Shown piece after piece: positions 26,141 to 59,120 of a stretch of DNA of 64,000 bases. Position 1 is the stretch's first letter, and the number at the start of each line of letters is the position of its first letter. The notes beneath the pieces are model-generated. The model did not search any database, was not told the DNA's origin, and saw only the letters and a program-made list of their open reading frames with translations. This stretch comes from Eledone cirrhosa (taxonomy: Eukaryota). The position numbers were made by a program, and so were the translations under genes. The DNA is taken from positions 13,082,001 through 13,146,000 of the forward strand of contig OZ024750.1 in NCBI GenBank assembly GCA_964016885.1, written 5' to 3'.

Positions 26141-27818
26141 GAAATGTTTACTCTGTCAAGATGGTCTTGTGTCAAGTAATTCTTTGATCAAAAGAATTTA
26201 AGTTTGACCATCTTATGTTGGGCTTTATTTTCAGAAATATTTTGCCCATGACTATAGTGTCCAATATGTGGTTTACTTGATGTTGGGGTGGGTGCTTTAA
26301 GGAAGATTCAGTGGCTACTTCTAATAGTTGGAATGACCACGTATGTCCTTTGATCCTACCTTTTTAATGTTTATTATATATTTAGATATATAAAGTTGAT
26401 ATCATAAAGTTTTACAATAGTCTCTCATTTTATAAGTTACCCTAATGCTATTTATTTGTTTTTTTTAACATTGAATACTAATTTATAGATGTATATAATT
26501 GGTCTTGTTTTGACATTTCATAAGGAAGGGGATAGACCATCTAAGACTGGTGGGAAGAGGTTATCTTCAAATTGGAGACCTGGAACAAATGCTTGCAACA
26601 GAGTATACTTTGATAAAAATTACTCAAGACTCAAGTGCTAGTGTTAAGCCAGATGATGGACTAAGTATACCAATTCTGAACATTGAATGCAAAAAGCTAA
26701 ATCAAATATCACAAGATATTTCATCCAATGGTCTAATAATTCACCAATCTACTGTCCTGAACTGGCATTTTATGTTATCAACCTCAAAAAAAATGAAGGA
26801 GAAAATTGACCATGACAGGATTTGAACTTATGACAGTCTGGTGTGGTTTAAATAAAGCTATCATTTAATACACTATTTTTGCATTGTTTGCATAAAAATG
26901 ATGTACATATGGAGATATGTGAAACCATATTTATAGGGGAATTTTATTATTGCATATTTTTTATCAATGAGAAAAATCAACCAATATATTATTTAGAATT
27001 ATTTTTTAAGTATGTATATATGTATGTATACGTGTGTGGGGGGGGGGGGGGGGGGGTGTAAAGTAATCTTTCAATAGGTTAACTTCAGAAAATAATTAAA
27101 ATCTGTAGTCCAGTTGATTCTCCTAAATCACTCTCCTAACCATATAGCTTGTCTCTGGTTAGCAACAATATTACTCATATTTCTGTGTGTAATATCTGTG
27201 TATATGTGTGATTGTACATTGACACTGATATATTTATACAGGATACCTATATTGTTTTCTCTTACAATCGGGCATGTGTGTAATAAACATAATCAGTATA
27301 TATGATTTTTCTAGAATAAATCAAGAGAAAAGACTATTAAAAGGTCTTGGTAAACGTTATAAAGATATCTTGTCTTAAAACCATTCATATGTACTTTAGC
27401 AAATTTGACATAAAAGTTAAGAGCTGAATGTTAAAATTAAAAAAAAAACTGTAATGTTTAAAACATTGTATTAATATATATTCATAACAGTGTTTAATGC
27501 ACAACAGTACTCATGTGTAATTTGTTCTGACATAAAGTATGATAACAATTTTTAAAATATAAATTATAAAATTACATACCTGCGATGTTGAAAACTAAAT
27601 CATACTTTTGGTAACTCATTCATATCATGTTTTAAATTTAATACCTACTTCCTTTGTTGTATATCATTTGCTGTTTATATTCTCCCCACATATATTACTC
27701 TATATGTATATCATAACAAATATGTAAGTTATGATTCTGTATTATAGTAAATTATATTTATTAATTATGTAGATTCATTTTGGTATTTGATAATAGAAAT
27801 TCAATTGAAAAATTGGTA

Positions 27819-27850
27819 TCTTACCTGCAATAAACAAAAAAAGGATCACA
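27819..27850 (-). promoter_or_regulatory. Candidate recursive splice site upstream of exon B (junction 27825/27824)
   Basis: Minus strand gatcc(T)n-gtttattgCAG|GTAAGAtacc. Confidence 0.7.
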
Positions 27851-28409
27851 TGAATGACATTATTCAACATTAGATGGATAAAAACTATTAGAATAAATAC
27901 ATTTTAAATATCTTAAAATATAAATTGCAACAGAAAAAAAAACTATTAGAATTTGTAAAGAAATGGTTAAATAATTCTTATATAAAACAGTTTTACGGTG
28001 GCACAAAATAAAATATTTAGATTTTAAATTAAATATGCTGCAATTGAATATGATGAACAATTTAACAAGAGTTCGTTGTTATGTATATACTCGATCCATT
28101 ATAAATTAAATTTCTACTTTTAGACATTATACATTTAGAAGCTATATAAATTCAACTGTTGGGCTAGATTAAATATATATTTTATGAACAGAATTCTTGA
28201 TTAAAATTTTATAAATTCAGAAACTAAACAGAGGTCAATCTAATCAATTATTTTAATTATTTTACATAAGTTTCAGATATACTGAGGAATTAAAATGAGA
28301 GAAGACCTCCTTAACAATACCCAAGAAACCAAGGGAATTGCTACAACTATGAAATAAAACAGGAGTATAGAGTATGATTACTGATCACTTTCTATTACAA
28401 CTATATATA

Positions 28410-28750
28410 TCATCATCATCATCATCATCATCATTTTGCGTCCACTTTTCCCTGCTTGCAAGGGTGGGACGGGAACTGATTCTGGGTTGATTTCTACAGC
28501 TGGATGCCCTTCCTAACACCAACCTCATTTACAGTGAGTGCTGGGTGCTTTTTTTCCGTGGCACCTCCACGACCAGTTTGCAGTGGAATGATAGGGTCCC
28601 CAGTCCCTATCATCTCATTTCTACAGCTGAGTAAACTGGAGCAATGTGAAATAAAGTGTCTTGCTCAAGGAAACAACACATCACCCGGTCTGAGAATTGA
28701 ACTCACAACCTTTCGATTGCAAGGCCAATGCTCTAACCACTAAGCCATGT
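28410..28750 (-). mobile_element. tRNA-derived SINE (internally rearranged) with RTE-like tail and (GAT)n end
   Basis: Minus-strand head TGGCTTAGTGGTTAGAGC (A box)...GAGTTCAATTC (B box); tail shared with 61150-61270 and 63665-63720. Confidence 0.75.
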
Positions 28751-28807
28751 GCCTTCATATATATATATATATTGAAGTATCGAGAGAGTTGAAATATTTT
28801 TAGAAAT

Positions 28808-30120: not shown

Positions 30121-30159
30121 ACATGTCACATACAATAATTATATATATGTATATATATG

Positions 30160-30462: not shown

Positions 30463-33400
30463 CTATATCTTCAAAACTTTCTCCTTTGAATGACTGAAGA
30501 TCTTCAGGACCAGGAAGGATAATATCACCAGCAGAAATAATATCTTGTTCCTGTTTAAATTCGATCGATATTTCTTCTTTTTGTTTGGGCGATATAGCAA
30601 CTTCAAAAGAATCTTTGGCAGCGAAGGGTTCAACCTTATCTGGTATAACTGATTCAGATATATCTGTAGGTTGAATTTCAGTAACAACTGTTACTTCTTC
30701 TTCTTCTGGTTCTTTTATCTTTATTTCAGTTGTAGAAATTGTTGTAATATCAGTAACTTCTTTAATTTCCAGCTCTTTACCTTCAATATGAACTGTACTT
30801 TCAGGTACAATATCAAAGGTAGATATTTCTGGTGTAATTGTTGTTTCTTCTTTACTGATAATGATTTCACTTTTAGCAACAGTTACCTGTTCTTCTTCGG
30901 TAGAAATAATATCTGACACTTTAGGTGTAACTTGCATTTCAATTTCACAGACAGTTGTCTCAGGTTTACCAATATCAATAAATGTAATTTCAGATTTCTC
31001 TGTAGGTTTCTCACCAATATCAAGTTGGATAGATACTTCCTCTTTAGTTTCAGGTTTAATATCAACTTGTGTCTTTTCAACTGGTTCCTTTGAAACTACA
31101 TCTTCATGTACAATTTCAGAAGGAATAGTTTCTTTAATGGTAATCTCTTGTAAATCAGTGCTAACAACACCTACAGTTTGAGGTATCTCTACATCTTCTT
31201 TCTCTATATCAGTTGTATGTTCTACAGTGTCAACAACCACATCTTCTGCTGTATGAATCTCTTCAATTACAGTAACTGATGTGTCTTTCTTATCAACAGG
31301 TACCTCAGTAGTTTCTACGTTCGTTTCTTTATCCGATGGAATATCAAAGAGTTCTTCTTCAGAAAGTACTTCATCAGCTGTACTCACAATACTTACAGCT
31401 GGAGCACTTATTATTGTCATTTCAGAAATTTCTTTCACATCTTTCTGTTCAGGAATGACTTCACTTTCCTTGCTGATTACAACGACACTATCACTTACAA
31501 TTTCTTCAGGTGTTTCCTCAGTTGTAGACATTTTGGTAGAACTCACAGAAATCTGAATACTACTCTCTTCAACTGGTTGAACACTCACTGTATCTTTAAA
31601 TGGTTCTTCCAATGTCTCTACAGTACTTTCTTTTTCTACTTCTTCACCTGTTGTAAATGTTTGTTCAGTTTTTAATACTATAGGTGTTTGGTCTTCAGAT
31701 GTGATTTTCTGAGAATCAATTGATACAACCATTTCAACAGGAACATCACTGATTTTCTCTGGAGAAATATCTGTTTTACTTTGTTCAGTACTGGTACTTA
31801 TAACTGAAGTAACTGTAACAGATTCAAGCGTATCTGGTATAACTGATTCAGATATATCTGTAGGTTGAATTTCAGTAACAACTTTTACTTCTTCTTCTGG
31901 TTGTTTTACCTTTATTTCAGTTGTGGAAATTGTTGTAATATCAGTAACTTCTGGTTTCTTCTCTTTAATTTCCAGTTCTTTACCTTCAATATGAACTGTA
32001 CTTTCAGGTACAATATCAAAGGTAGATATTTCTGGTGTAATTGTTGTTTCTTCTTTAGTGATAATAATGTCACTTTTAGCAACAGTTGCCTGTTCTTTTT
32101 CAGTAGAAATAATATCTGGTACTTTAGGTGTAACTTGCATTTCAATTTCACACACTGTTGTCTCAGGTTTACCAATATCAATAAATGTAATTTCAGATTT
32201 CTCTGTAGATTTCTCACCAATATCAAGTTGGATAGATACTTCCTCTTTAGTTTCTCGTTTAATATCAACTTGTGTCTTTTCAACTGGTTCCTTTGAAACT
32301 ACATCTTCATGTACAATTTCAGAAGGAATAGTTTCTTTAATAGTAATCTCTTGTAAATCAGTGCTAACAACACCTACAGTTTGAGGTATCTCTACATCTT
32401 TCTCTATATCAGTTGTATGTTCTACAGTGTCAACAACTACATCTTCTGCTGTATGAATCTCTACAATTACAGTAACTGATGTGTCTTTCTTATCAACAGG
32501 TACCTCAGTAGTTTCAACTTTCGTTTCTTTATCTGATGGAATATCAAAGAGTTCTTCTTCAGAAATTACTTCATCAGCTGTACTCACAATACTTACAGCT
32601 GGCGCACTTATTATTGTCATTTCAGAAATTTCTTTCACATCTTTCTGTTCAGGAATGACTTCACTTTCCTTGCTGATTACAACGACACTATCACTTACAA
32701 TTTCTTCAGGTGTTTCCTCAGTTGTAGACATTTTGGTAGAACTCACAGAAATCTGAATACTACTCTCTTCAACTGGTTGAACACTCACTGTATCTTTAAA
32801 TGGTTCTTCCAATGTCTCTACAGTACTTTCTTTTTCTACTTCTTCACCTGTTGTAAATGTTTGTTCAGTTTTTAATATTATAGGTGTTTGGTCTTCAGAT
32901 GTGATTTTCTGAGAATCAATTGATATAACCATTTCAACAGGAATATCACTGATTTTCTCTGGAGAAATATCTGTTTTACTTTGTTCAGTACTGGTACTTA
33001 TAACTGAAGTAACTGTAACAGATTCAACCGTATCTGGTATAACTGATTCAGATATATCTGTAGGTTGAATTTCAGTAACAACTTTTACTTCTTCTTCTTC
33101 TGGTTGTTTTACTTTTATTTCAGTTGTAGAAATTGTTGTAATATCAGTAACTTCTGGTTTCTTCTCTTTAATTTCCAGTTCTTTACCTTCAATATGAACT
33201 GTACTTTCAGGTACAATATCAAAGGTAGATATTTCTGGTGTAATTGTTGTTTCTTCTTTAGTGATAATAATTTCACTTTTAGCAACAGTTACCTGTTCTT
33301 CATCGGTAGAAATAATATCTGGTACTTTAGGTGTAACTTGCATTTCAATTTCACACACTGTTGTCTCAGGTTTACCAATATCAATAAATGTAATTTCAGA

Positions 33401-36400
33401 TATCTCAGTAGGTTTCTCACCAATGTCAAGTTGGAGAGATACATCCTCTTTAGTTTCTGGTTTAATATCAACTTGTGTTTTTTCAACTGGTTCCTTTGAA
33501 ACTACATCTTCATGTACAATTTCAGAAGGAATAGTTTCTTTAATAGTAATCTCTTGTAAATCAGTGCTAACAACACCTACAGTTTGAGGTATCTCTACAT
33601 CTTTCTCTATATCAGTTGTATGTTCTACAGTGTCAACAACTACATCTTCTGCTGTATGAATCTCTTCAATTACAGTAACTGATGTGTCTTTCTTATCAAC
33701 AGGTACCTCAGTAGTTTCAACTTTCGTTTCTTTATCCGATGGAATATCAAAGAGTTCTTCTTCAGAAATTACTTCATCAGCTGTACTTACAATACTTACA
33801 GCTGGAGCACTTATTATTGTCATTTCAGAAATTTCTTTCACATCTTTCTGTTCAGGAATGACTTCACTTTCTTTGCTGATTTCAACAACACTATCACTTA
33901 CAATTTCTTCATGTGTTTCCTCAGTTGTAGACATTTTGGTAGAACTCACAGAAATCTGAATACTACTCTCTTCAACTGGTTGAACACTCACTGTATCTTT
34001 AAATGGTTCTTCCAATGTCTCTACAGTACTTTCTTTTTCTACTTCTTCACCTGTTGTAAATGTTTGTTCAGTTTTTAATATTATAGGTGTTTGGTCTTCA
34101 GATGTGATTTTCTGAGAATCAATTGATATAACCATTTCAACAGGAATATCACTGATTTTCTCTGGAGAAATATCTGTTTTACTTTTTTCAGTACTGGTAC
34201 TTATAACTGAAGTAACTGTAACAGATTCAACCGTATCTGGTATAACTGATTCAGATAAATCTGTAGGTTGAATTTCAGTAACAACTTTTACTTCTTCTTC
34301 TTCTGGTTGTTTTACCTTTATTTCAGTTGTAGAAATTGTTGTAATATCAGTAACTTCTGGTTTCTTCTCTTTAATTTCCAGTTCTTTACCTTCAATATGA
34401 ACTGTACTTTCAGGTACAATATCAAAGGTAGATATTTCTGGTGTAATTGTTGTTTCTTCTTTAGTGATAATAATTTCACTTTTAGCAACAGTTACCTGTT
34501 CTTCATCGGTAGAAATAATATCTGGTACTTTAGGTGTAACTTGCATTTCAATTTCACACACTGTTGTCTCAGGTTTACCAATATCAATAAATGTAATTTC
34601 AGATATCTCAGTAGGTTTCTCACCAATGTCAAGTTGTAGAGATACTTCCTCTTTAGTTTCTGGTTTAATATCAACTTGTGTCTTTTCAACTGGTTCCTTT
34701 GAAACTACATCTTCATGTACAATTTCAGAAGGAATAGTTTCTTTAATAGTAATCTCTTGTAAATCAGTGCTAACAACACCTACAGTTTGAGGTATCTCTA
34801 CATCTTCTTTCTCTATATCAGTTGTATTTTCTACAGTGTCAACAACCACATCTTCTGCTGTATGAATCTCTTCAATTACAGTAACTGATGTGTCTTTCTT
34901 ATCAACAGGTACCTCAGTAGTTTCAACTTTCGTTTCTTTATCCGATGGAATATCAAAGAGTTCTTCTTCAGAAAGTACTTCATCAGCTGTACTCACGATA
35001 CTTACAGCTGGAGCACTTATTATTGTCATTTCAGAAATTTCTTTCACATCTTTCTGTTCAGGAATGACTTCACTTTCCTTGCTGATTACAACGACACTAT
35101 CACTTACAATTTCTTCAGGTGTTTCCTCAGTTGTAGACATTTTGGTAGAACTCACAGAAATCTGAATACTACTCTCTTCAACTGGTTGAACACTCACTGT
35201 ATCTTTAAATGGTTCTTCCAATGTCTCTACAGTACTTTCTTTTTCTACTTCTTCACCTGTTGTAAATGTTTGTTCAGTTTTTAATATTATAGGTGTTTGG
35301 TCTTCAGATGTGATTTTCTGAGAATCAATTGATATAACCATTTCAACAGGAATATCACTGATTTTCTCTGGAGAAATATCTGTTTTACTTTGTTCAGTAC
35401 TGGTACTTATAACTGAAGTAACTGTAACAGATTCAACCGTATCTGGTATAACTGATTCAGATATATCTGTAGGTTGAATTTCAGTAACAACTTTTACTTC
35501 TTCTTCTTCTGGTTGTTTTACCTTTATTTCAGTTGTTGAAATTGTTGTAATATCAGTAACTTCTGGTTTCTTCTCTTTAATTTCCAGTTCTTTACCTTCA
35601 ATATGAACTGTACTTTCAGATACAATATCAAAGGTAGATATTTCTGGTGTAATTGTTGTTTCTTCTTTAGTGATAATAATTTCACTTTTAGCAACAGTTA
35701 CCTGTTCTTCATCGGTAGAAATAATATCTGGTACTTTAGGTGTAACTTGCATTTCAATTTCACACACTGTTGTCTCAGGTTTACCAATATCAATAAATGT
35801 AATTTCAGATATCTCAGTAGGTTTCTCACCAATGTCAAGTTGTAGAGATACTTCCTCTTTAGTTTCTGGTTTAATATCAACTTGTGTCTTTTCAACTGGT
35901 TCCTTTGAAACTACATCTTCATGTACAATTTCAGAAGGAATAGTTTCTTTAATGGTAATCTCTTGTAAATCAGTGCTAACAACACCTACAGTTTGAGGTA
36001 TCTCTACATCTTCTTTCTCTATATCAGTTGTATGTTCTACAGTGTCAACAACCACATCTTCTGCTGTATGAATCTCTTCAATTACAGTAACTGATGTGTC
36101 TTTCTTATCAACAGGTACCTCAGTAGTTTCAACTTTCGTTTCTTTATCCGATGGAATATCAAAGAGTTCTTCTTCAGAAAGTACTTCATCAGCTGTACTC
36201 ACGATACTTACAGCTGGAGCACTTATTATTGTCATTTCAGAAATTTCTTTCACATCTTTCTGTTCAGGAATGACTTCACTTTCCTTGCTGATTACAACGA
36301 CACTATCACTTACAATTTCTTCAGGTGTTTCCTCAGTTGTAGACATTTTGGTAGAACTCACAGAAATCTGAATACTACTCTCTTCAACTGGTTGAACACT

Positions 36401-39400
36401 CACTGTATCTTTAAATGGTTCTTCCAATGTCTCTACAGTACTTTCTTTTTCTACTTCTTCACCTGTTGTAAATGTTTGTTCAGTTTTTAATACTATAGGT
36501 GTTTGGTCTTCAGATGTGATTTTCTGAGAATCAATTGATACAACCATTTCAACAGGAATATCACTGATTTTCTCTGGAGAAATATCTGTTTTACTTTGTT
36601 CAGTACTGGTACTTATAACTGAAGTAACTGTAACAGATTCAAGCGTATCTGGTATAACTGATTCAGATATATCTGTAGGTTGAATTTCAGTAACAACTTT
36701 TACTTCTTCTTCTTCTGGTTGTTTTACCTTTATGTCAGTTGTGGAAATTGTTGTAATATCAGTAACTTCTGGTTTCTTCTCTTTAATTTCCAGTTCTTTA
36801 CCTTCAATATGAACTGTACTTTCAGGTACAATATCAAAGGTAGATATTTCTGGTGTAATGGTTGTTTCTTCTTTAGTGATAATAATTTCACTTTTAGCAA
36901 CAGTTACCTGTTCTTCATCGGTAGAAATAATATCTGGTACTTTAGGTGTAACTTGCATTTCAATTTCACACACTGTTGTCTCAGGTTTACCAATATCAAT
37001 AAATGTAATTTCAGATATCTCAGTAGGTTTCTCACCAATGTCAAGTTGTAGAGATACTTCCTCTTTAGTTTCTGGTTTAATATCAACTTGTGTCTTTTCA
37101 ACTGGTTCCTTTGAAACTACATCTTCATGTACAATTTCAGAAGGAATAGTTTCTTTAATAGTAATCTCTTGTAAATCAGTGCTAACAACACCTACAGTTT
37201 GAGGTATCTCTACATCTTCTTTCTCTATATCAGTTGTATTTTCTACAGTGTCAACAACCACATCTTCTGCTGTATGAATCTCTTCAATTACAGTAACTGA
37301 TGTGTCTTTCTTATCAACAGGTACCTCAGTAGTTTCAACTTTCGTTTCTTTATCCGATGGAATATCAAAGAGTTCTTCTTCAGAAAGTACTTCATCAGCT
37401 GTACTCACGATACTTACAGCTGGAGCACTTATTATTGTCATTTCAGAAATTTCTTTCACATCTTTCTGTTCAGGAATGACTTCACTTTCCTTGCTGATTA
37501 CAACGACACTATCACTTACAATTTCTTCAGGTGTTTCCTCAGTTGTAGACATTTTGGTAGAACTCACAGAAATCTGAATACTACTCTCTTCAACTGGTTG
37601 AACACTCACTGTATCTTTAAATGGTTCTTCCAATGTCTCTACAGTACTTTCTTTTTCTACTTCTTCACCTGTTGTAAATGTTTGTTCAGTTTTTAATATT
37701 ATAGGTGTTTGGTCTTCAGATGTGATTTTCTGAGAATCAATTGATATAACCATTTCAACAGGAATATCACTGATTTTCTCTGGAGAAATATCTGTTTTAC
37801 TTTGTTCAGTACTGGTACTTATAACTGAAGTAACTGTAACAGATTCAACCGTATCTGGTATAACTGATTCAGATATATCTGTAGGTTGAATTTCAGTCAC
37901 AACTTTTACTTCTTCTTCTTCTGGTTGTTTTACCTTTATTTCAGTTGTTGAAATTGTTGTAATATCAGTAACTTCTGGTTTCTTCTCTTTAATTTCCAGT
38001 TCTTTACCTTCAATATGAACTGTACTTTCAGATACAATATCAAAGGTAGATATTTCTGGTGTAATTGTTGTTTCTTCTTTAGTGATAATAATTTCACTTT
38101 TAGCAACAGTTACCTGTTCTTCATCGGTAGAAATAATATCTGGTACTTTAGGTGTAACTTGCATTTCAATTTCACACACTGTTGTCTCAGGTTTACCAAT
38201 ATCAATAAATGTAATTTCAGATATCTCAGTAGGTTTCTCACCAATGTCAAGTTGTAGAGATACTTCCTCTTTAGTTTCTGGTTTAATATCAACTTGTGTC
38301 TTTTCAACTGGTTCCTTTGAAACTACATCTTCATGTACAATTTCAGAAGGAATAGTTTCTTTAATGGTAATCTCTTGTAAATCAGTGCTAACAACACCTA
38401 CAGTTTGAGGTATCTCTACATCTTCTTTCTCTATATCAGTTGTATGTTCTACAGTGTCAACAACCACATCTTCTGCTGTATGAATCTCTTCAATTACAGT
38501 AACTGATGTGTCTTTCTTATCAACAGGTACCTCAGTAGTTTCAACTTTCGTTTCTTTATCCGATGGAATATCAAAGAGTTCTTCTTCAGAAAGTACTTCA
38601 TCAGCTGTACTCACGATACTTACAGCTGGAGCACTTATTATTGTCATTTCAGAAATTTCTTTCACATCTTTCTGTTCAGGAATGACTTCACTTTCCTTGC
38701 TGATTACAACGACACTATCACTTACAATTTCTTCAGGTGTTTCCTCAGTTGTAGACATTTTGGTAGAACTCACAGAAATCTGAATACTACTCTCTTCAAC
38801 TGGTTGAACACTCACTGTATCTTTAAATGGTTCTTCCAATGTCTCTACAGTACTTTCTTTTTCTACTTCTTCACCTGTTGTAAATGTTTGTTCAGTTTTT
38901 AATACTATAGGTGTTTGGTCTTCAGATGTGATTTTCTGAGAATCAATTGATACAACCATTTCAACAGGAATATCACTGATTTTCTCTGGAGAAATATCTG
39001 TTTTACTTTGTTCAGTACTGGTACTTATAACTGAAGTAACTGTAACAGATTCAAGCGTATCTGGTATAACTGATTCAGATATATCTGTAGGTTGAATTTC
39101 AGTAACAACTTTTACTTCTTCTTCTTCTGGTTGTTTTACCTTTATGTCAGTTGTGGAAATTGTTGTAATATCAGTAACTTCTGGTTTCTTCTCTTTAATT
39201 TCCAGTTCTTTACCTTCAATATGAACTGTACTTTCAGGTACAATATCAAAGGTAGATATTTCTGGTGTAATGGTTGTTTCTTCTTTAGTGATAATAATTT
39301 CACTTTTAGCAACAGTTACCTGTTCTTCATCGGTAGAAATAATATCTGGTACTTTAGGTGTAACTTGCATTTCAATTTCACACACTGTTGTCTCAGGTTT

Positions 39401-42400
39401 ACCAATATCAATAAATGTAATTTCAGATATCTCAGTAGGTTTCTCACCAATGTCAAGTTGTAGAGATACTTCCTCTTTAGTTTCTGGTTTAATATCAACT
39501 TGTGTCTTTTCAACTGGTTCCTTTGAAATTACATCTTCATGTACAATTTCAGAAGGAATAGTTTCTTTAATGTTAATCTCTTGTAAATCAGTGCTAACAA
39601 CACCTACAGTTTGAGGTATCTCTACATCTTCTTTCTCTATATCAGTTGTATGTTCTACAGTGTCAACAACCACATCTTCTGCTGTATGAATCTCTTCAAT
39701 TACAGTAACTGATGTGTCTTTCTTATCAACAGGTACCTCAGTAGTTTCAACTTTCGTTTCTTTATCCGATGGAATATCAAAGAGTTCTTCTTCAGAAAGT
39801 ACTTCATCAGCTGTACTCACGATACTTACAGCTGGAGCACTTATTATTGTCATTTCAGAAATTTCTTTCACATCTTTCTGTTCAGGAATGACTTCACTTT
39901 CCTTGCTGATTACAACGACACTATCACTTACAATTTCTTCAGGTGTTTCCTCAGTTGTAGACATTTTGGTAGAACTCACAGAAATCTGAATACTACTCTC
40001 TTCAACTGGTTGAACACTCACTGTATCTTTAAATGGTTCTTCCAATGTCTCTACAGTACTTTCTTTTTCTACTTCTTCACCTGTTGTAAATGTTTGTTCA
40101 GTTTTTAATATTATAGGTGTTTGGTCTTCAGATGTGATTTTCTGAGAATCAATTGATATAACCATTTCAACAGGAATATCACTGATTTTCTCTGGAGAAA
40201 TATCTGTTTTACTTTGTTCAGTACTGGTACTTATAACTGAAGTAACTGTAACAGATTCAACCGTATCTGGTATAACTGATTCAGATATATCTGTAGGTTG
40301 AATTTCAGTAACAACTTTTACTTCTTCTTCTTCTGGTTGTTTTACCTTTATTTCAGTTGTAGAAATTGTTGTAATATCAGTAACTTCTGGTTTCTTCTCT
40401 TTAATTTCCAGTTCTTTACCTTCAATATGAACTGTACTTTCAGATACAATATCAAAGGTAGATATTTCTGGTGTAATTGTTGTTTCTTCTTTAGTGATAA
40501 TAATTTCACTTTTAGCAACAGTTACCTGTTCTTCATCGGTAGAAATAATATCTGGTACTTTAGGTGTAACTTGCATTTCAATTTCACACACTGTTGTCTC
40601 AGGTTTACCAATATCAATAAATGTAATTTCAGATATCTCAGTAGGTTTCTCACCAATGTCAAGTTGGAGAGATACTTCCTCTTTAGTTTCTGGTTTAATA
40701 TCAACTTGTGTTTTTTCAACTGGTTCCTTTGAAACTACATCTTCATGTACAATTTCAGAAGGAATAGTTTCTTTAATGTTAATCTCTTGTAAATCAGTGC
40801 TAACAACACCTACAGTTTGAGGTATCTCTACATCTTCTTTCTCTATATCAGTTGTATGTTCTACAGTGTCAACAACCACATCTTCTGCTGTATGAATCTC
40901 TTCAATTACAGTAACTGATGTGTCTTTCTTATCAACAGGTACCTCAGTAGTTTCAACTTTCGTTTCTTTATCCGATGGAATATCAAAGAGTTCTTCTTCA
41001 GAAAGTACTTCATCAGCTGTACTCACGATACTTACAGCTGGAGCACTTATTATTGTCATTTCAGAAATTTCTTTCACATCTTTCTGTTCAGGAATGACTT
41101 CACTTTCCTTGCTGATTACAACGACACTATCACTTACAATTTCTTCAGGTGTTTCCTCAGTTGTAGACATTTTGGTAGAACTCACAGAAATCTGAATACT
41201 ACTCTCTTCAACTGGTTGAACACTCACTGTATCTTTAAATGGTCCTTCCAATGTCTCTACAGTACTTTCTTTTTCTACTTCTTCACCTGTTGTAAATGTT
41301 TGTTCAGTTTTTAATACTATAGGTGTTTGGTCTTCAGATGTGATTTTCTGAGAATCAATTGATACAACCATTTCAACAGGAATATCACTGATTTTCTCTG
41401 GAGAAATATCTGTTTTACTTTGTTCAGTACTGGTACTTATAACTGAAGTAACTGTAACAGATTCAAGCGTATCTGGTATAACTGATTCAGATACATCTGT
41501 AGGTTGAATTTCAGTAACAACTTTTACTTCTTCTTCTTCTGGTTGTTTTACCTTTATATCAGTTGTGGAAATTGTTGTAATATCAGTAACTTCTGGTTTC
41601 TTCTCTTTAATTTCCAGTTCTTTACCTTCAATATGAACTGTACTTTCAGGTACAATATCAAAGGTAGATATTTCTGGTGTAATGGTTGTTTCTTCTTTAG
41701 TGATAATAATTTCACTTTTAGCAACAGTTACCTGTTCTTCATCGGTAGAAATAATATCTGGTACTTTAGGTGTAACTTGCATTTCAATTTCACACACTGT
41801 TGTCTCAGGTTTACCAATATCAATAAATGTAATTTCAGATATCTCAGTAGGTTTCTCACCAATGTCAAGTTGTAGAGATACTTCCTCTTTAGTTTCTGGT
41901 TTAATATCAACTTGTGTCTTTTCAACTGGTTCCTTTGAAACTACATCTTCATGTACAATTTCAGAAGGAATAGTTTCTTTAATGGTAATCTCTTGTAAAT
42001 CAGTGCTAACAACACCTACAGTTTGAGGTATCTCTACATCTTTCTCTATATCAGTTGTATGTTCTACAGTGTCAACAACTACATCTTCTGCTGTATGAAT
42101 CTCTTCAATTACAGTAACTGATGTGTCTTTCTTATCAACAGGTAACTCAGTAGTTTCAACTTTCGTTTCTTTATCCGATGGAATATCAAAGAGTTCTTCT
42201 TCAGAAATTACTTCATCAGCTGTACTCACAATACTTACAGCTGGAGCACTTATTATTGTCATTTCAGAAATTTCTTTCACATCTTTCTGTTCAGGAATGA
42301 CTTCACTTTCTTTGCTGATTTCAACAACACTATCACTTACAATTTCTTCAGGTGTTTCCTCAGTTGTAGACATTTTGGTAGAACTCACAGAAATCTGAAA

Positions 42401-44571: not shown

Positions 44572-46029
44572 CTAATATAAATCAAATATTTATTAAGTAA
44601 ACATTCTCATAAAATAATCGTTTGTTTGTTTCCATGTTTTTTTTTATCCTCCATTATTGTGAGAGTAAAAGCAGTCATCCATGAAAAAAATGAATTTTTC
44701 ACTTTCTTACATATGAAAGTATTCATACCATGCTTTATAGTGAGGTTTGTAAATAATGCTGTTTTTTTAAGGAAATTTTTCGTGGTATTTTATGTTTTTG
44801 TTTTTGAGGTTTATCAATTATTATTGAAATTTAGATATCAATAGAAATATTCATTTAATTGGTTTTATGCAGGAGAAAAATGAAATGCTGAGAATATAGA
44901 AATCTATGGATAATCATAATATTTAATAATTAAATTTAAAATCTCGACATGACCTGTAGATTAATCTGTTACATTATAAATATCATCCACTTCAATTTAT
45001 AGTATTAGTCAGTGAGTTGTATTAATCTTGTCTTTCACGATTACCCATCTTTCTATTAAAATATATTTATTCTAAATACACATCTGCCTGTATAAAGACA
45101 ATTTAATTTCAACACGATCTTTCTTTTTCTTATGTTTCTTAACCTTACTCTCTTTTCAACATGATTGTGGATATTTCATAGTAAAAAAGAATTAGAGAGA
45201 TTATACATGTGTGTTTTTATGATACATGTACATTTGTATAAAACCATACACTAATGCAACCGATGCATGTGTGTTTGTCTATAAAACCATATACTAATGC
45301 AACAGATGCATGTATATTTGTGTATACACTTATACAAAAGATGCAACCATGGTTTATATATTTTAATGTGATTTTAATTCCCAAAAGGGAATTAGAAAAC
45401 TTTAAAAAAAGGATTCCACCAAGCATGATAAATGATTACATGACTGAAACTACTGAAGATATCTTAATTGTTGTTTTACATCTAAAAAATAATTTTATTT
45501 CTAAATTTTAAATCATAGAATTAAAATGAAGGAATGTTTATACTAAATATTGGTTTTATTATTTATGGAATTGCTTTATAAAATATACAAAAGTATTCTT
45601 CTTCCAACATAATGATATGCAAACAAATCAAAATAAGAATAAACAACAACAATGTGATTGAACATCTGAAAAGTATTTTAAATTAATATGAAATAAAAAT
45701 TATAAAAAAATTCATTGTAAACCAAAACTCTTCTAAATTTCTACTGTACCTGGATACTAAAAAAAAAACATTTATATTCTTGTAAATAGAAATTATAATA
45801 TTACATACCTGCGATGTAGAAAATTAAATCACAACTTTGATATATCATTCAAATTAAGTTTTAATACTTACATCTTCTGTTGAATATCTCTACCTTTTTC
45901 TGACATATGTATATAATATTGTGTATGGATATCATAATTGAAATATAACTTGTAATACTTATTATGGTACAGTAAGAAGAATCATTCTGGTAATATTTGG
46001 TAACAGAAATTCCATATGAAAAATTGATA

Positions 46030-46070
46030 TCTTACCTGAAATAAACAAAAAAAAAGCCACGTGAAAGATA
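46030..46070 (-). promoter_or_regulatory. Candidate recursive splice site upstream of exon C (junction 46036/46035)
   Basis: Minus strand ctttcacgtggc(T)n-gtttatttCAG|GTAAGAtatc. Confidence 0.7.
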
Positions 46071-46090
46071 TACATTTATAAAAGGATATA

Positions 46091-50059: not shown

Positions 50060-50347
50060 CTAGGTGAAGCTGCATGCACTATGTACTAATTAATACAAAG
50101 AAAGCAACTTCTTTCATATTGACAAAGTTATCAGAAATTACAGAGACCCAACATAATAACTGACAAATTATTGAGCTGAAAGAGACATGAAAACATATAC
50201 AATGGTTAAGTATTTGAAAGACAACACAGTTGACAGCATGCTACCTAGGCATTGGTAAGCTACATCAATTGATGCTTGTGTAAACTCAAGCAGAGGCAGT
50301 GAGTGTAGAAGCACGAATTAAATCCTGCATAATGTTCTACAAAATAC
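50060..50347 (-). promoter_or_regulatory. Conserved intronic block after the exon D donor (UGCAUG at 50073-50078)
   Basis: Homologous to the blocks after exons A, B and C. Confidence 0.6.
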
Positions 50348-53300
50348 CTATGACTTCGACAACTTGTTCTTTGAATGACTGCAGATCAGCAGGAACAGGA
50401 AGAATAGTTTCACCCTCAATAACATCGTGTTCATGTTGAATACTTTGTGATGTGATTGATGTTTCTTCTTTGCTGTGAGGCATTATATCGATTTCAGAAA
50501 CAGCTTTATCATCAATACTTTTCTTACTAATCATAATTCCACTTTCATTAAACGTTATCTGTTCTTTTTCGGTAGAAATAACATCTGGTACTTCAGGAGT
50601 AATTTGCATTTCAATTTTACACACTGTTGTCTCAGGTTTACCAATATCAATAAATGTAATTTCAGATTTCTCAGTAGGTTTCTCATCAATATCAAGTTTA
50701 ATAGATACTTCCTGTATGGTTTCTGGTTTAATATCAACTTGTGTCTTTTCAACTGGTTCCTTTGAAACAACATCTTCATGTACAATTTCAGAAGGAATAG
50801 TTTCTTTAATATCAAATATAACTGATTCAGATATATCTGTAGGTTGAATTTCAGTAACAACTTTTACTTCTTCTTCTTCTGGTTGTTTTACATTTATTTC
50901 AGTTGTGGAAATTGTTGTAATATCAGTAACTTCTGGTTTCTTCTCTTGAATTTCCAGTTCTTTACCTTCAATATGAACTGTACTTTCAGGTACAATATCA
51001 AAGGTAGATATTTCTGGTGTAATTGTTGTTTCTTCTTTACTGATAATAATTTCACTTTTAGCAAGAGTTACCTGTTCTTTTTCAGTAGAAATAACATCTG
51101 GTACTTTAGGTGTAACTTGTATTTCAATATCACACACTGTTGTCTCAGGTTTACCAATATCAATAAATGTAATTTCAGATTTCTCAGTAGGATTCACACC
51201 AATGTCAAGTTGGATAGATACTTCCTCTTTAGTTTCAGGTTTAATATCAACTTGTGTCTTTTCAACTGGTTCCTCTGAAATGACATCTTCATGTACAATT
51301 TCAGAAGGAATAGTTTCTTTAATGGTAATCTCTTGTAAATCAGTGCTAACAACACCTACAGTTTGAGATATCTCTACATCTTCTTTCTCTATATCAGTTG
51401 TATGTTCTACAGTGTCAACAACCACATCTTCTGCTGTATGAATCTCTTCAATTACAGTAACTGATGTGTCTTTCTTATCAACAGGTACCTCAGTAGTTTC
51501 AACTTTCGTTTCTTTATCCGATGGAATATCAAAGAGTTCTTCTTCAGAAAGTACTTCGTCAGCTGTACTTACAATACTTACAGCTGGAGCACTTATTATT
51601 GTCATTTCAGAAATTTCTTTCACGTCTTTCTGTACAGGAATGACTTCACTTTCCTTGCTGATTTCAACAACACTATCACTTACAATTTCTTCAGGTGTTT
51701 CCTGAGTTGTAGACATTTTGGTAGAACTCACAGAAATCTGAATACTACTCTCTTCAACTGGTTGAACACTCACTGTATCTTTAAATGGTTCTTCCAATGT
51801 CTCTACAGTACTTTCTTTTTCTACTTCTTCACCTGTTGTAAATGTTTGTTCAGTTTTTATAACTATAGGTGTTTGATCTTCTGATATGATTTTCTTAGAA
51901 TCAATTGATACGACCATTTCAACAGGAATATCACTGATTTTCTCTGGAGAAATATCTGTTTTACTTTGTTCAGTACTGGTACTTATAACTGAAGTAACTG
52001 TGACAGATTCAACCTTATCTGGTATAAATGATTCAGATATATCTGTAGGTTGAATTTTAGTAACAACTTTTACTTCTTCTTCTTCTGGTTGTTTTACCTT
52101 TATTTCAGTTGTAGAAATTGTTGTAATATCAGTAACTTCTGGTTTCTTCTCTTTAATTTCCAGTTCTTTACCTTCAATATGAACTGTACTTTCAGGTACA
52201 ATATCAAAGGTAGATATTTCTGGTGTAATTGTTGTTTCTTCTTTCCTTATAATAATTTCACTTTTAGCAACAGTTACCTGTTCTTCATCGGTAGAAATAA
52301 CATCTGGTACTTTAGGTGTAACTTGCATTTCAATTTCACACACTGTTGTCTCAGGTTTACCAATATCAATAAATGTAATTTCAGATATCTCAGTAGGTTT
52401 CTCACCAATGTCAAGTTGGATAGATACTTCCTCTTTAGTTTCTGGTTTAATATCAACTTGTGTCTTTTCAACTGGTTCCTCTGAAATGACATCTTCATGT
52501 ACAGTTTCAGAAGGAATAGTTTCTTTAATGGTAATCTCTTGTAAATCAGTGCTAACAACACCTACAGTTTGAGGTATCTCTACATCTTCTTTCTCTATAT
52601 CAGTTGTATGTTCTACAGTGTCAACAACCACATCTTCTGCTGTATGAATCTCTTCAATTACAGTAACTGATGTGTCTTTCTTATCAACAGGTACCTCAGT
52701 AGTTTCAACTTTCGTTTCTTTATCCGATGGAATATCAAAGAGTTCTTCTTCAGAAAGTACTTCATCAGCTGTACTAACAATACTCACAGCTGGAGCACTT
52801 ATTATTGTCATTTCAGAAATTTCTTTCACATCTTTCTGTTCAGGAATGACTTCACTTTCCTTGCTGATTTCAACAACACTATCACTTACAATTTCTTCAG
52901 GTGTTTCTTCAGTTGTAGACATTTTGGTAGAACTCACAGAAATCTGAAAACTCCTCTCTTCAACTGGTTGAACACTCACTGTATCTTTAAATGGTTCTTC
53001 CAATGTCTCTACAATACTTTCTTTTTCTACTTCTTCACCTGTGGTATATGTTTGTTCAGTTTTTATAACTATAGGTGTTTGATCTTCTGATATGATTTTC
53101 TTAGAATCAATTGATATAACCATTTCAACAGGAATATCACTGATTTTCTCTGGAGAAATATCTGTTTTACTTTGTTCAGTACTGGTACTTATAACTGAAG
53201 TAACTGTAACAGATTCAACCTTATCTGGTATAACTGATTCAGATATATCTGTAGGTTGAATTTCAGTAACAACTTTTACTTCTTCTGGTTGTTTTACCTT

Positions 53301-56300
53301 TATTTCAGTTGTAGAAATTGTTGTAATATCAGCAACATCTGGTTTCCTCTCTTTAATTTCCAGTTCTTTACCTTCAATATGAACTGTACTTTCAGGTACA
53401 ATATCAAAGGTAGATATTTCTGGTGTAATTGTTGTTTCTTCTTTACTTATAATAATTTCACTTTTAGCAACAGTTACCTGTTCTTCATCGGTAGAAATAA
53501 CATCTGGTACTTTAGGTGTAACTTGCATTTCAATTTCACACACTGTTGTCTCAGGTTTACCAATATCAATAAATGTAATTTCAGATTTCTCTGTAGGATT
53601 TTCATCAATGTCAAGTTGGATAGATACTTCCTCTTTAGTTTCAGGTTTAATATCAACTTGTGTCTTTTCAACCGGTTCCTCTGAAATGACATCTTCATGT
53701 ACAGTTTCAGAAGGAATAGTTTCTTTAATGGTAATCTCTTGTAAATCAGTGCTAACAACACCTACAGTTTGAGATATCTCTACATCTTCTTTCTCTATAT
53801 CAGTTGTATGTTCTACAGTGTCAACAACCACATCTTCTGCTGTATGAATCTCTTCAATTGCAGTAACTGATGTGTCTTTTTTATCAACAGGTACCTCAGT
53901 AGTTTCAACTTTTGATTCTTTATCTGATGGAATATCAAAGAATTCTTCTTCAGAAAGTACTTCATCAGCTGTACTCACAATACTTACAGCTGGAGCACTT
54001 ATTATTGTCATTTCAGAAATTTCTTTCACATCTTTCTTTTCAGGAATGACTTCATTTTCTTTGCTGATTTCAACAACACTATCACTTTCAATTTCTTCAG
54101 GTGTTTCTTCAGTTGTAGACATTTTGGTAGAACTCACAGAAATCTGAATACTACTCTCTTCAACTGGTTGAACACTCACTGTATCTTTAAATGGTTCTTC
54201 CAATGTCTCTACAGTACTTTCTTTTTCTACTTCTTCACCTGTTGTATATGTTTGTTCAGTTTTTATAACTATAGGTGTTTGGTCCTCAGAAGTGATTTTC
54301 TTAGAATCAATTGATACAACCATTTCAACAGGAATATCACTGATTTTCTCTGGAGAAATATCTGTTTTACTTTGTTCAGTACTGGTACTTATAACTGAAG
54401 TAACTGTAACAGATTCAACCGTATCTGGTATAACTGATTCAGATATATCTGTAGGTTGAATTTCAGTAACAACTTTTACTTCTTCTTCTTCTGGTTGTTT
54501 TACCTTTATTTCAGTTGTAGAAATTGTTGTAATATCAGTAACCTCTGGTTTCTTCTCTTTAATTTCCAGTTCTTTACCTTCAATATAAACTGTACTTTCA
54601 GGTACAATATCAAAGGTAGACATTTCTGGTGTAATTGTTGTTTCTTCTTTACTGATAATAATTTCACTTTTAGCAACAGTTACCTGTTCTTCATCGGTAG
54701 AAATAATATCTGGTACTTTAGGTGTAACTTGCATTTCAATTTCACACACTGTTGTCTCAGGTTTACCAATATCAATAAATGTAATTTCAGATTTCTCTGT
54801 AGGATTCTCACCAATGTCAAGTTGGATAGATACTTCCTCTTTAGTTTCAGGTTTAATATCAACTTGTGTCTTTTCAACTGGTTCCTCTGAAATGACATCT
54901 TCATGTACAGTTTCAGAAGGAATAGTTTCTTTAATGGTAATCTCTTGTAAATCAGTGCTAACAACACCTACAGTTTGAGGTATCTCTACATCTTCTTTCT
55001 CTATATCAGTTGTATGTTCTACAGTGTCAACAACCACATCTTCTGCTGTATGAATCTCTTCAATTACAGTAACTGATGTGTCTTTCTTATCAACAGGTAC
55101 CTCAGTAGTTTCAACTTTTGATTCTTTATCTGATGGAATATCAAAGAATTCTTCTTCAGAAAGTACTTCATCAGCTGTAGTCACAATACTTACAGCTGGA
55201 GCACTTATTATTGTCATTTCAGAAATTTCTTTCACATCTTTCTGTACAGGAATGACTTCACTTTCCTTGCTGATTTCAACAACACTATCACTTACAATTT
55301 CTTCAGGTGTTTCCTCAGCTGTAGACATTTTGGTAGAACTCACAGAAATCTGAATACTACTCTCTTCAACTGATTGAACACTCACTGTATCTTTAAATGG
55401 TTCTTCCAATGTATCTACAGTACTTTCTTTTTCTACTTCTTCACCTGTGGTATATGTTTGTTCAGTTTTTATAACTATAGGTGTTTGATCTTCTGATATG
55501 ATTTTCTTAGAATCAATTGATACAACCATTTCAACAGGAATATCACTGATTTTCTCTGGAGAAATATCTGTTTTACTTTGTTCAGTACTGGTACTTATAA
55601 CTGAAGTAACTGTAACAGATTCAACCTTATCTGGAATAACTGATTCAGATATATCTGTAGGTTGAATTTCAGTAACAACTTTTACTTCTTCTTCTGATTG
55701 TTTTACCTTTATTTCAGTTGTAGAAATTGTTGTAATATCAGTAACTTCTGGTTTCTTCTCTTTAATTTCCAGTTCTTTACATTCAATATGAACTGTACTT
55801 TCAGGTACAATATCAAAGGTAGACATTTCTGGTGTAATTGTTGTTTCTTCTTTACTGATAATAATGTCATTTTTAGCAACAGTTACCTGTTCTTTTTCAG
55901 TAGAAATAATATCTGGTACTTTAGGTGCAACTTGCATTTCAATTTCACACACTGTTGTCTCAGGTTTACCAATATCAATAAATGTAATTTCAGATTTCTC
56001 AGTAGGATTCACACCAATGTCAAGTTGGATAGATACTTCCTCTTTAGTTTCTGGTTTAATATCAACTTGTGTCTTTTCAACTGGTTCCTTTGAAACTATA
56101 TCTTCATGTACAGTTTCAGAAGGAATAGTTTCTTTAATGGTAATCTCTTGTAAATCAGTGCTAACAACACCTACAGTTTGAGGTATCTCTACATCTTCTT
56201 TCTCTATATCAGTTGTATGTTCTACAGTGTCAACAACCACATCTTCTGCTGTATGAATCTCTTCAATTACAGTAACTGATATGTCTTTCTTAACAACAGG

Positions 56301-57412
56301 TATTTCAGTAGTTTTAACTTTTGTTTCTTCATCTGATGAGATATCAAAGAATTCTTCTTCAGAAAGTACTTCGTCAGCTGTACTCACAATACTTACAGCT
56401 GGAGCACTTATTATTGTCATTTCAGAAATTTCTTTCACATCTTTCTGTACAGGAATGACTTCACTTTCCTTGCTGATTTCAACAACTCTATCACTTACAA
56501 TTTCTTCAGGTGTTTCCTCAGTTGTAGACATTTTGGTAGAACTCACAGAAATCTGAATACTACTCTCTTCAACTGGTTTAACACTCACTGTATCTTTAAA
56601 TGGTTCTTCCAATGTCTCTACAGTACTTTCTTTTTCTACTTCTTCACCTGTTGTAAATGTTTGTTCAGTTTTTATAACTATAGGTGTCTGGTCTTCAGAT
56701 GTGATTTTCTTAGAATCAATTGATACAACCATTTCAACAGGAATATCACTGATTTTCTCTGGAGAAATATCTGTCTTACTTTGTTCAGTACTGGTACTTA
56801 TAACTGAAATAACTGTAACAGATTCAACCTTATCTGGTATAACTGATTCAGATATATCTGTAGGTTGAATTTCAGTAACAACTTTTACTTCTTCTTCTTC
56901 TGGTTGTTTTACCTTTATTTCAGCGGTAGAAATTGTTGTAATATCAGTAACTTCTGGTTTCTTCTCTTTAATTTCCAGTTCTTTACCTTCAATATGAACT
57001 GTACTTTCAGGTACAATGTCAAAGGTAGACATTTCTGGTGTAATTGTTGTTTCTTCTTTACTGATAATGATTTCACTTTTAGCAACAGTTACCTGTTCTG
57101 TTTCTGTAGAAATAATATGTGGCACTTTAGCTGTAACTTGTATTTCAATTTGGTCCTTGTGAGGAACATAGATTTCATTTGGCGTTACTATTTCTGTTTC
57201 AATATATTGTTGTTCTGTAGTTTCTTGGAGTACTTTTGTTTCATAAGTTACTGTTTCCACTACATCTGATGTTACTTTTATATCCATATTAATGCCTTTT
57301 GTTATTTCGAATGAGGGTGAAACCTCTTCTATTACCATTTCTGTTATTTCTCTCTTTGTTTCATCATCTTCTTTGTCTCTCTTTCTTATTTCTCTATCGA
57401 CTGGCAAATCAC
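50348..57412 (-). CDS. Giant exon D (7065 nt, 2355 codons, phase 1-1) with ~5.5 repeat copies
   Basis: ORF 50337..57407; tttatatcAG|GTGATTTG; GTCATAG|GTATTT; length divisible by 3; a stop follows within a few codons if the donor is not used. Confidence 0.85.
50530..57140. repeat. Coding tandem array, ~1206-bp unit (exon D)
   Basis: Shadow ORF starts at 51466, 52672, 53872, 55078, 56281. Confidence 0.95.
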
Positions 57413-59075
57413 CTGATATAAATCAAATAATTTTTAATAATGCATTCTCACTTAATAATCATTATTTTGTCTCCATAATTACGTATACTGTGCTGAATGA
57501 AAATAAATGAAATAATTATTTTACATTATAGAATTGAAATATCATAAAATACATTTTCTTGTCACAATGTTCCTTGTAAACAATAAATTGGTTGCTCCTA
57601 AGTTTGTATTGGTTGTTGAATTTGAATGAAGTTTTGTAGTTTGTATGTACATTCCTCTGTCTCATATATGTTGTGGTATAACACATGCTGATTTAAATGC
57701 TATAATGTTTTGTTTCAGTAACCAGAAACCATTGATATGTCTTCCAATCACTGATATTGTGAATGGCTATTATTCCTTTTTAAAATTTAGTAATACTAAA
57801 CATTATTTTGTCTATAATAAAGATGGATCATATTGGTGGATGTTTGTTTTATACTGTGAAATTCACATATTATACATTATGATTCTCTAAATTAGAGTAA
57901 TTTAATGCATTGATTAAAATCTATATTGGAAAGTTGTTGGAAGGTAGGCAGCTGAATTAATTTCAGGAGCTGGTACAGTAATGCCGTAGCTTCAGAATTT
58001 GGTCATCAGAAGAAGGGAGGTAGCTGTAATAGCCAAACTCACTATATTCAATTCAGTGTTTATGCCTAACATTAGCCATAGTCATGATTCACTACTCCTT
58101 TGAATTGAAAGCTCACAGTTACAGTACTACAGACGTGGTCAGATTGCTGGACAGATTTTATGGGCAAAACAAACTAGCAGGAAATCCAGGGGTAGACCAT
58201 GACCAAGATGTTTGGATAACACCCATGAGCTCACTAGGGGATCCAGCTAGATGAATTGGAAACAGTTACTTCTGACGGGATCTGCTGATTGACCCTACAT
58301 GTCAATCAAATTAGGATCCCACCTCCACATAGTTTAGAAAGAACTGAAAGAAAAAGATTTTTCAGTTATCCTCTCACCCTCAATAACTATATATAATTTG
58401 AAGTATGAAAAGAAAAACGGTAAAATTTAGTGCTTTGTTCATTGTTTTATGACCACTTTAAAAGCTGGAATGAACCATGATAATATCGATAGCAGTTAAG
58501 GAAGTAAATTTTAGGACACTAAATTCGGATGCTAAATGGTCATACTGGTAAAACTACTGAATGTTTTTAAATGCATTTTCCACCTTCAAAAGTTTTTAAA
58601 TACCTGAGTATAATTGCCGACGTCCTATTTTGTTTTTAATATAAGCAGTAAGAGTTATACTAAATATCTGTTTTGTTTTCTGTTTTTTAATAAGATTAAA
58701 TATTCCGCAACTCCCAGAAATATTCTTGTATAGTTTCTTCAAAGAATGTAGAAACTGATCAATAAATATTTCATAAATAATACACAGGAATGTGATGATG
58801 TATCTGAAAATAAGATAGTTTCATTTGAAATGAAAATGAAATAAAAATACGAATTTGAAATATTCTTGAAAATAGAAATTATAAAATTACATACCTGGAA
58901 TGTAGAAAAAGCCATAATTTTGGCAAAACATTGAAATTCTGTTTTAATACATACTTCCTCAGTTGAATATTTATATTATTGTGTATGGATATCATAACAG
59001 ATAAACTGTAGTATAGTAAATTATGTACATACATTTTGGTATTTGATAACAGGAATTCCATAAATGAAAATGATA

Positions 59076-59120
59076 TCTTACCTGAAATATACAAAAAGAA
59101 AAAAAAAACGTGAAAGATAC
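59076..59120 (-). promoter_or_regulatory. Candidate recursive splice site upstream of exon D (junction 59082/59081)
   Basis: Minus strand ctttcacg(T)n-ctttttgtatatttCAG|GTAAGAtatc. Confidence 0.7.

Follow-up and report, generated by a model that had tools for sequence, protein, structure and literature searches.

Four giant exons lie on the minus strand of a 64,000-nucleotide (nt) stretch of the Eledone cirrhosa genome (assembly GCA_964016885.1, contig OZ024750.1, positions 13,082,001 to 13,146,000; hereafter the window, with positions counted from its first letter), and each is preceded by a module of three conserved splice donor sites. We propose, with a probability of about one half, that the three sites end short alternative first exons of an internal promoter, which would have been copied fourfold together with a giant exon.

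Three conserved donor sites in four duplicated units

The giant exons appear as four long frames built of 402-amino-acid (aa) repeats rich in E, V, T, I, S and K. A 300-nt repeat reference finds 25 copies in the window at a spacing of ~1206 nt, and in a genome search the 402-aa repeat was confined to this locus (27 of 27 matches, from 46 candidates). The frames belong to four homologous units, A to D, each extending from ~400 nt upstream of the first donor (site 1) to several hundred nt past the giant-exon donor, and each composed of the three-donor module, an intron of 1.2-3.3 kilobases (kb), the giant exon and a conserved stretch of ~300 nt behind the giant-exon donor. The giant exons (A, 50348..57412, 7065 nt; B, 30463..44571, 14109 nt; C, 19820..25204, 5385 nt; D, 8509..12765, 4257 nt) are all multiples of 3 with phase-1 ends, start with GTGA, and encode repeat regions of 2355, 4703, 1795 and 1419 aa, a 3.3-fold range. 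The modules sit 1.5-3.3 kb upstream of their own giant exons (site 1 to acceptor 1669, 1464, 2620 and 3259 nt in A, B, C and D), and the intron middles in between are unalignable across copies. DNA contigs from three runs of one sample cover modules A and B, differing in no more than one place each and never inside a module; the three sequencing runs span introns throughout and behave as DNA, and the assembly of these two modules is confirmed.

Identity among the 1206-nt repeats is 94-100% both within and between the four giant exons (including 30401-44581), yet the introns separating the units can no longer be aligned; this suggests ongoing homogenisation of the repeats; repeat counts in such arrays may be sensitive to assembly. 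The giant-exon acceptors (57412, 44571, 25204 and 12765) share ATTTGATTTATAT before YAG, and they are AG/GT junctions too (a slash marks the splice junction here and below), with weak donor scores of 3.7-6.7.

Given as GT positions on the minus strand, the three donors of unit A are site 1 at 59081 (59081..59124, CAG/GTAAGA), the middle donor at 58954 (58949..58957, GAA/GTATGT) and site 2 at 58894 (58894..58931, CAG/GTATGT). Their counterparts are 46035 (46035..46075), 45871 (45866..45874, GAT/GTAAGT) and 45808 (45808..45848) in B, and 27824 (27824..27870), 27648 (27643..27651, GAA/GTAGGT) and 27579 (27579..27619) in C. The module of unit D (15395..16055) has site 1 at 16024, the middle donor at 15469 and site 2 at 15395, where CTCGG/GTATGT carries GG instead of AG with the donor kept. 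A TA microsatellite of ~390 nt (~15506-15894) lies behind site 1 of D, within what would be its cryptic exon, and site 1 is 555 nt from the middle donor and 629 nt from site 2. A preliminary description of this DNA had placed sites 1 and 2 of A, B and C 187, 227 and 245 nt apart and had noticed the middle donor-like motif 60, 63 and 69 nt before site 2; these positions and distances are exact and the motif letters are as it wrote them. Its three modules stand, although not as a complete set, the fourth copy, D, having been missed.

Aligning the four copies leaves 487 ungapped columns, of which 193 are invariant; in the three donor 9-mers the invariant columns number 9, 7 and 8 of 9, and the best-conserved 14-nt windows fall on these motifs. 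Only five of the 35 GT dinucleotides of copy A are invariant in all four copies, and all five lie within the donor motifs; the same holds for two of its 19 AG dinucleotides, both at site 1. Conservation above that of the neighbouring duplicated intron, on which the preliminary description had staked its case, is thus borne out for the donors, which form the conservation peaks and hold the sole four-copy-invariant GTs. Judged by this pattern, the three donors are under selection. Strong donor-like sites occur by chance at 31 per 100 kb of the control strand, and the weight of the three sites therefore lies in their conservation and not in their presence. Across the 3.0-gigabase genome the middle motif is found only in A, C and D (control 0), and a genome search for further module paralogs returned A-C only, with none in the 244 kb around the locus.

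The sites were scored with weight matrices whose training set (86 donors, 83 acceptors) was anchored on Ig and FN3 exons of the same gene; its boundaries were chosen semi-automatically by score, so that errors among them are possible and the model has some circularity, and percentiles are leave-one-out. Donor percentiles in A, B, C and D are 72, 72, 72 and 84 for site 1, 95, 95, 95 and 54 for site 2, and 24, 25, 9 and 24 for the middle donor, and sites 1 and 2 supply 8 of the top 11 donor scores among 4731 GTs (84.6 to 5.2 kb). Site 2 outscores site 1 as a donor in A-C (11.2 versus 9.7) and is the weaker of the two in D, and the middle donor scores below site 1 in all four copies. As acceptors, site 1 reaches percentiles of 84, 15, 15 and 50 and site 2 of 42, 14, 13 and 0, compared with 34, 22, 15 and 15 for the giant exons. 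A branch-point-like yTnAy motif is located at -30, -27, -27 and -26 of site 1 in the four copies (CTAAC in D), a motif that 65% of real acceptors and 35% of random intron positions have; at -36 to -18 of site 2, A-C have none. By these scores, site 1 combines a strong donor with a passable acceptor, and site 2 is a donor only, because D lacks the AG and A-C lack the branch-point motif. Site 2 had previously been taken for a fusion of acceptor and donor, and of the two halves the conserved donor holds and the conserved acceptor does not.

Candidate first exons of internal promoters

If the sites end first exons, transcription would start ahead of site 1, with a possible second start between the two sites, and the cap-proximal donor would be spliced to the weak acceptor of the giant exon 1.2-3.3 kb further on. 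Use of the middle donor would leave the leader without coding sequence, and translation would begin at the first Met in the giant exon (codon 26, 3, 11 and 11 in A, B, C and D). The transcript would then join the shared Ig-IQ-FN3 exons or terminate at a local stop, and the choice of promoter would select one of the four repeat regions (2355, 4703, 1795 or 1419 aa). Site 1 may also act as an acceptor for transcripts begun further upstream.

The reading frames in front of the sites are consistent with such leaders. Read upstream in phase 1, site 1 is preceded by a Met and 14, 13 and 15 codons in A, B and C (MCIFHVFFFFLYIS, MYIFHVAFFLFIS and MLNNVIHVILFLFIA; ATG at 59124, 46075 and 27870, the last differing from that of A and B), and site 2 by a Met and 12, 13 and 13 codons (MFCQNYGFFYIP, MIYQSCDLIFYIA and MSYQKYDLVFNIA; ATG at 58931, 45848 and 27619). 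The ATG-led frames at both sites share phase 1 with the giant exon in A-C and not in D, where ATA replaces the ATG of site 2. An in-phase ATG 12-15 codons ahead is present at 6 of the 8 sites (sites 1 and 2 in four copies); among strong donor-like sites of the control strand, 8 of 113 have an in-phase Met at 10-16 codons and 25 of 113 within 20, and for the 83 real acceptors the shares are 3.6% and 16.9%. In both leaders, the length differences among A, B and C are of 3 nt.

Conservation reaches -300 to -400 from site 1, with z of 3.9-9.8 in 4 of 6 pairs at -300 to -200, and in unit A the conserved block at 59159..59458 (~-380 to -80; A-C, 65% over 328 columns, E 1.7e-11) is a candidate promoter or 5' untranslated region. 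At the real giant-exon acceptors, conservation is confined to -100 to 0 (z 7.8-20.2 in 6 of 6 pairs) and stays at or below 2.0 in the 30 pair-windows further up. Among A-C, no windows are better conserved than the 200 nt that follow site 1 (z 8.6-18.7; these are comparisons of paralogs, not orthologs), and the 100 nt upstream of site 1 give z of -0.4 to 5.3. Duplication of promoter, leader, giant exon and stop as one unit would explain simply why these parts were copied jointly.

A fifth candidate coding first exon is found at L005:2418-2452 (ATG and 11 codons, phase 1, strong donor). In this region (L005:2384-2452, minus strand) two strong donors lie 34 nt apart, each closing a Met-led phase-1 frame (11 and 6 codons), and there is no giant exon of its own. 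The frame of another exon upstream of the modules (L006:793-516, minus strand) reads into a hydrophobic tail and a stop. This readthrough (L006:516-793) passes a weak donor at L006:661 (score 5.2) to a hydrophobic stretch and a cysteine-rich end (FGCCFWCCFFCCLWQ); the product has no Pfam match, and it is possible that it represents a membrane-anchored, palmitoylated titin-like isoform.

Several observations weigh against first exons. In copy D all three donors are intact and neither site 1 nor site 2 has an in-phase ATG; a start at Met 11 of the giant exon is possible there, but has to be assumed in addition. In all six leaders a pyrimidine occupies position -3 of the ATG, which is a poor start context. 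Since the copies share ancestry, the frames cannot be treated as independent: taken by lineage, an ATG within 20 codons precedes 4 of the 7 strong orphan donors of the interval versus 22% (P ~0.05, by hand arithmetic), and the 10-16-codon window was picked post hoc. Of the 13 ATGs of module A, 4 are invariant in A-C and only one of these is a leader start. The leaders give no coding signal by codon position, in a test without power (true exon ends vary 7/7/7), and no core-promoter motif was identified. Finally, the branch-point-like motif in all four copies of site 1, and its acceptor score, as good as those of the giant exons, would be unneeded in a pure first-exon donor.

Related arrangements are known from other loci. 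In the clustered protocadherin and UGT1A loci, tandem variable first exons with their own starts are spliced to shared constant exons; here the variable part would comprise a leader, an intron and a repeat exon of 4-14 kb, with its own stop options in each unit. Vertebrate titin is known to have internal promoters with short leaders. In the case of the Cronos promoter of zebrafish, mouse and human titin, which gives a C-terminal isoform, an in-frame Met precedes the exon by 7-12 aa (PMC4720518), and the candidate starts in E. cirrhosa resemble it as internal starts in a titin-like gene with an in-frame Met about a dozen codons ahead of an exon. Cronos, however, is a single copy that extends its exon 5' without an intron (PMC4720518), whereas here each of four start candidates would have a 1.2-3.3 kb intron, three alternative donors and a giant exon of its own. 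Connectitin and kalirin loci likewise use internal promoters (PMC12198301). The connectitin loci (SESTD1-CCDC141-TTN, and CG15822-Zormin-sallimus in Drosophila) share with this one the order of spectrin-like repeats (here a match below the cut-off), Ig arrays and acidic repeat exons followed by Ig and FN3 domains on one strand, in several transcription units, but the accessible part of PMC12198301 describes no fourfold array of promoter and giant exon for them, and its supplements name Octopus in figure legends only. A fourfold array of leader and giant exon had no match in our literature search, most subscription papers being beyond its reach. Were either this reading or the single ratchet point discussed below true, the locus would hold a four-way switch among titin-like proteins whose repeat regions differ 3.3-fold (1419-4703 aa), and such a switch could tune passive muscle properties in cephalopod arms and mantle.

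Recursive splicing and other alternatives

The most serious rival, possible although we consider it doubtful, takes site 1 as a single ratchet point. The upstream exon would be spliced to its AG, the regenerated GTAAGA donor would then be joined to the giant-exon acceptor, the middle donor, site 2 or both would define a cryptic recursive-splicing (RS) exon that is removed, and the choice of ratchet would pick the giant exon. Site 1 does unite a juxtaposed YAG/GT, in the form YAG/GTAAGA in all four copies, with a strong donor (72nd-84th percentile) and conservation, and it has a T-rich tract, an AG-free zone of 60, 142, 60 and 22 nt and the yTnAy motif at -26 to -30. The seven module sites that bear an AG rank 1-7 among the 271 AG/GT of the interval, and copy D, which lacks the ATGs, has the best branch point of site 1 (CTAAC). 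The intron from the last upstream exon would be at least 27 kb long. In Drosophila, GTAAGA also opens the RS-exons of Ubx (10.1101/006163), and conserved donors follow RS sites (PMC6224609), as they follow site 1 here, with the middle donor weaker than site 1 in all copies.

The same comparison with fly ratchet points and RS-exons (10.1101/006163; PMC8605326; PMC6224609) also brings out differences. The likeness lies in the YAG/GT, strong donor, tract, branch-point-like motif, conserved downstream donors and long upstream intron (a segment of more than 25 kb), but efficient recursive splicing requires an RS donor stronger than the downstream donor (PMC6224609; PMC8605326), and in A-C it is the site 2 donor that is stronger. 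The body of the fly RS-exon is poorly conserved (PMC8605326), whereas here the 200 nt downstream of site 1 are better conserved than the 100 nt upstream. Conservation as far as 300-400 nt ahead of site 1 is likewise unlike a fly ratchet point. The segments from site 1 to the giant-exon acceptor are short, two of the four falling below the fly minimum of 2596 nt (10.1101/006163), and the first downstream donor is 127-555 nt from site 1, compared with mostly less than 100 nt in the fly. In D the RS-exon would be 555-629 nt long and mostly microsatellite, and in B and C the site 1 acceptor is only at the 15th percentile. If proven, the ratchet point would be new for cephalopods as far as our literature search reaches.

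First-exon and ratchet readings are compatible, since site 1 could serve both ways. It might be a first-exon donor for its own promoter and a ratchet point for full-length transcripts, with recursive splicing selecting among four giant exons whose acceptors are too weak, and promoter and ratchet choice would then set the titin spring length of each muscle type; we regard this combination as unlikely. Dual-specificity splice sites, at which one site is usable as donor and as acceptor, are reportedly described in human (Zhang, in 2007). Hybrid first/internal exons in human, where one transcript can use as an acceptor what another uses as a first-exon donor (10.1101/2021.05.27.446076), would fit site 1, with the difference that the internal use would here have zero length, in a cephalopod candidate. 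Two further AG/GT sites were noticed in the surrounding DNA: at L009:2043 (minus strand) the acceptor of an Ig exon is followed by GTAATTT (donor 8.9, acceptor 11.8), resembling an expressed RS-exon, and far upstream, at L035:9153 (minus strand), there is another high-scoring site (TTTTAG/GTATGT).

All rivals other than the single ratchet point are, even when pooled, improbable. The best of them, which we hold to have a slim chance, is that the donors never end an mRNA exon and instead serve as landing sites for U1 or as decoys, guarding against early polyadenylation in the giant exon or regulating its weak acceptor. U1 protects against early polyadenylation, each giant exon carries 4-9 AATAAA and 13-45 ATTAAA, the giant-exon acceptors are weak (15th-34th percentile), and there are three donors within 250 nt. 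This proposal leaves unexplained the in-phase ATG frames, the 3-nt length differences, and the AG and branch-point motif of site 1, and no pairing of the modules with distant docking regions was found; among 5 regions tested, none contained a docking site common to the four copies. RNA folding was better than shuffles in 0 of 8 segments (z -1.42 to 1.45), the consensus fold of A-C was weak with no gain from covariation, and the modules have no match in Rfam.

Two further candidate elements were rejected. Microexons between the sites have no AG conserved in the four copies, the one 15-nt candidate being confined to C and D. An ETS-like reading of the middle motif fits less well than a donor, as B lacks GGAA yet keeps GTAnGT.

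The model of the preliminary description, two tandem ratchet points with a frame-breaking poison exon between them that would couple failed re-splicing to nonsense-mediated decay (NMD), now appears very improbable; it takes for granted that site 1 is a ratchet point. Its starting point, CAG/GTATGT at site 2, is present in A-C, and the stronger site 2 donor would favour inclusion, but site 2 has lost its AG in D while keeping the donor, lacks a branch-point motif in A-C and fails as an acceptor in the gene-trained scoring (percentiles 42, 14, 13 and 0), a check which otherwise upheld strong donors at sites 1 and 2 and a passable acceptor at site 1. The middle donor and site 2 are 60-74 nt apart, less than the shortest donor-to-acceptor distance in the training set (102 nt). 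The claim that the cryptic exons break the frame holds from site 1 to site 2 (187, 227, 245 and 629 nt, no multiple of 3) and is not general, the 555 nt from site 1 to the middle donor in D being a multiple of 3. Inclusion does end in a stop on 8 of 8 phase-1 paths. In B-D the stop lies within the exon, whereas in A both paths reach it only at the junction. This has no diagnostic value, because AT-rich DNA is rich in stops by composition and because the giant exons begin with GTGA, so that phase-2 entry stops at once. The in-frame TAA cited for copy C is not the stop that phase-1 entry meets, which is a TGA after 15 codons; TAA comes first only on phase-2 entry. Overlooked in that model was that the T-rich stretch before each site can also be the end of a first exon.

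Least credible of all is the proposal that makes each unit a gene in its own right, encoding a membrane-bound or secreted repeat protein, with the site 1 leader as signal or anchor peptide and the read-through tail as hydrophobic anchor: the mean hydropathy of the site 1 leaders is 2.05-2.16 and their last residues are Ser/Ala-Gly, the giant-exon donor of B-D is followed by a tail of 20-50 aa, and the repeat occurs at this locus only, but any T-rich tract translates to Phe, Leu and Ile, the tail is cut by a TAG in A, the homolog in Argonauta terminates at the same place as DIGI, and the donor at the giant-exon end is conserved in all four copies and in phase with the downstream titin exons.

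The gene, its relatives and the elements behind the giant exons

The exons flanking the giant exons encode I-set Ig, IQ and FN3 domains above the Pfam cut-offs; a Spectrin match in one of two upstream exons tested (E 0.0021) is below the cut-off. The first shared downstream exon (5118..5157, minus strand, phase 1-1) is followed by Ig, IQ and FN3 exons, and 84 Ig and 95 FN3 stretches were counted with custom profiles over 364 kb around the locus, a region that stops short of the gene ends. The locus fits a titin/sallimus-type (connectitin) gene, because arrays of I-set Ig and FN3 domains are combined with acidic repeat exons. The downstream array (L021, L025-L030) comprises ~95 FN3 exons and still continues 120 kb past the window, which is very long for a sallimus-type gene.

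The closest protein relative of the giant-exon repeats is a protein of 4426 aa from Argonauta hians (58% identity), and a second named relative is a Sepia pharaonis protein (32% identity). The protein GAB1610542.1 indicates the position of the orthologous locus in A. hians. Protein searches with the giant-exon N-termini gave no match among proteins of 71-228 and 229-2000 residues, and wider searches returned these two named homologs, both without the leader. The locus may already be annotated in databases. A study of Octopus skin-mucus proteomics mentions titin, with no detail in its accessible part (PMC11431876).

Stop options lie directly behind every giant exon. In unit A, the conserved 3' element (50060..50347, minus strand) has a weak donor (ATAG/GTATTT), a read-through tail to a stop, an acceptor that opens a stop exon, and GCATG and YGCY motifs; the elements of B, C and D (30160-30462, 19490-19819 and 8160-8508) have the same layout. 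Reading through the weak donor gives a tail of 20-50 aa in B-D and one cut by TAG in A. The acceptor lies 172-189 nt on, with TTAAC at -30 to -32 in 3 of 4 copies; its exon stops after 2 codons (13 in D), and a closing donor is present in C and D only. GCATG, the Rbfox motif, occurs twice in the first 400 nt behind each giant exon versus 0.17 expected, and YGCY is the MBNL motif. These elements may provide early ends similar to those of kettin and Novex-3 or a real poison exon, and they would be better candidates for NMD than the module. Kettin is a short isoform of sls (PMC11081514), and the likeness to the short titins kettin and Novex-3 is early termination behind a large exon. A literature search on a short isoform of C. 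elegans ttn-1 gave no match.

A second conserved block, possibly a 3' end or a splicing element, is located 600-1100 nt behind the giant-exon donors (49486-49666, 29379-29547, 19112-19191 and 7860-7941) and contains TGCATG and TTGCATTTT motifs. Elsewhere, at L005:7855-8170 (minus strand), an acceptor at L005:7905, with a TGCATG cluster upstream, opens a 16-codon hydrophobic frame whose first residues, Ala-Gln, also begin the stop exons in units A and B.

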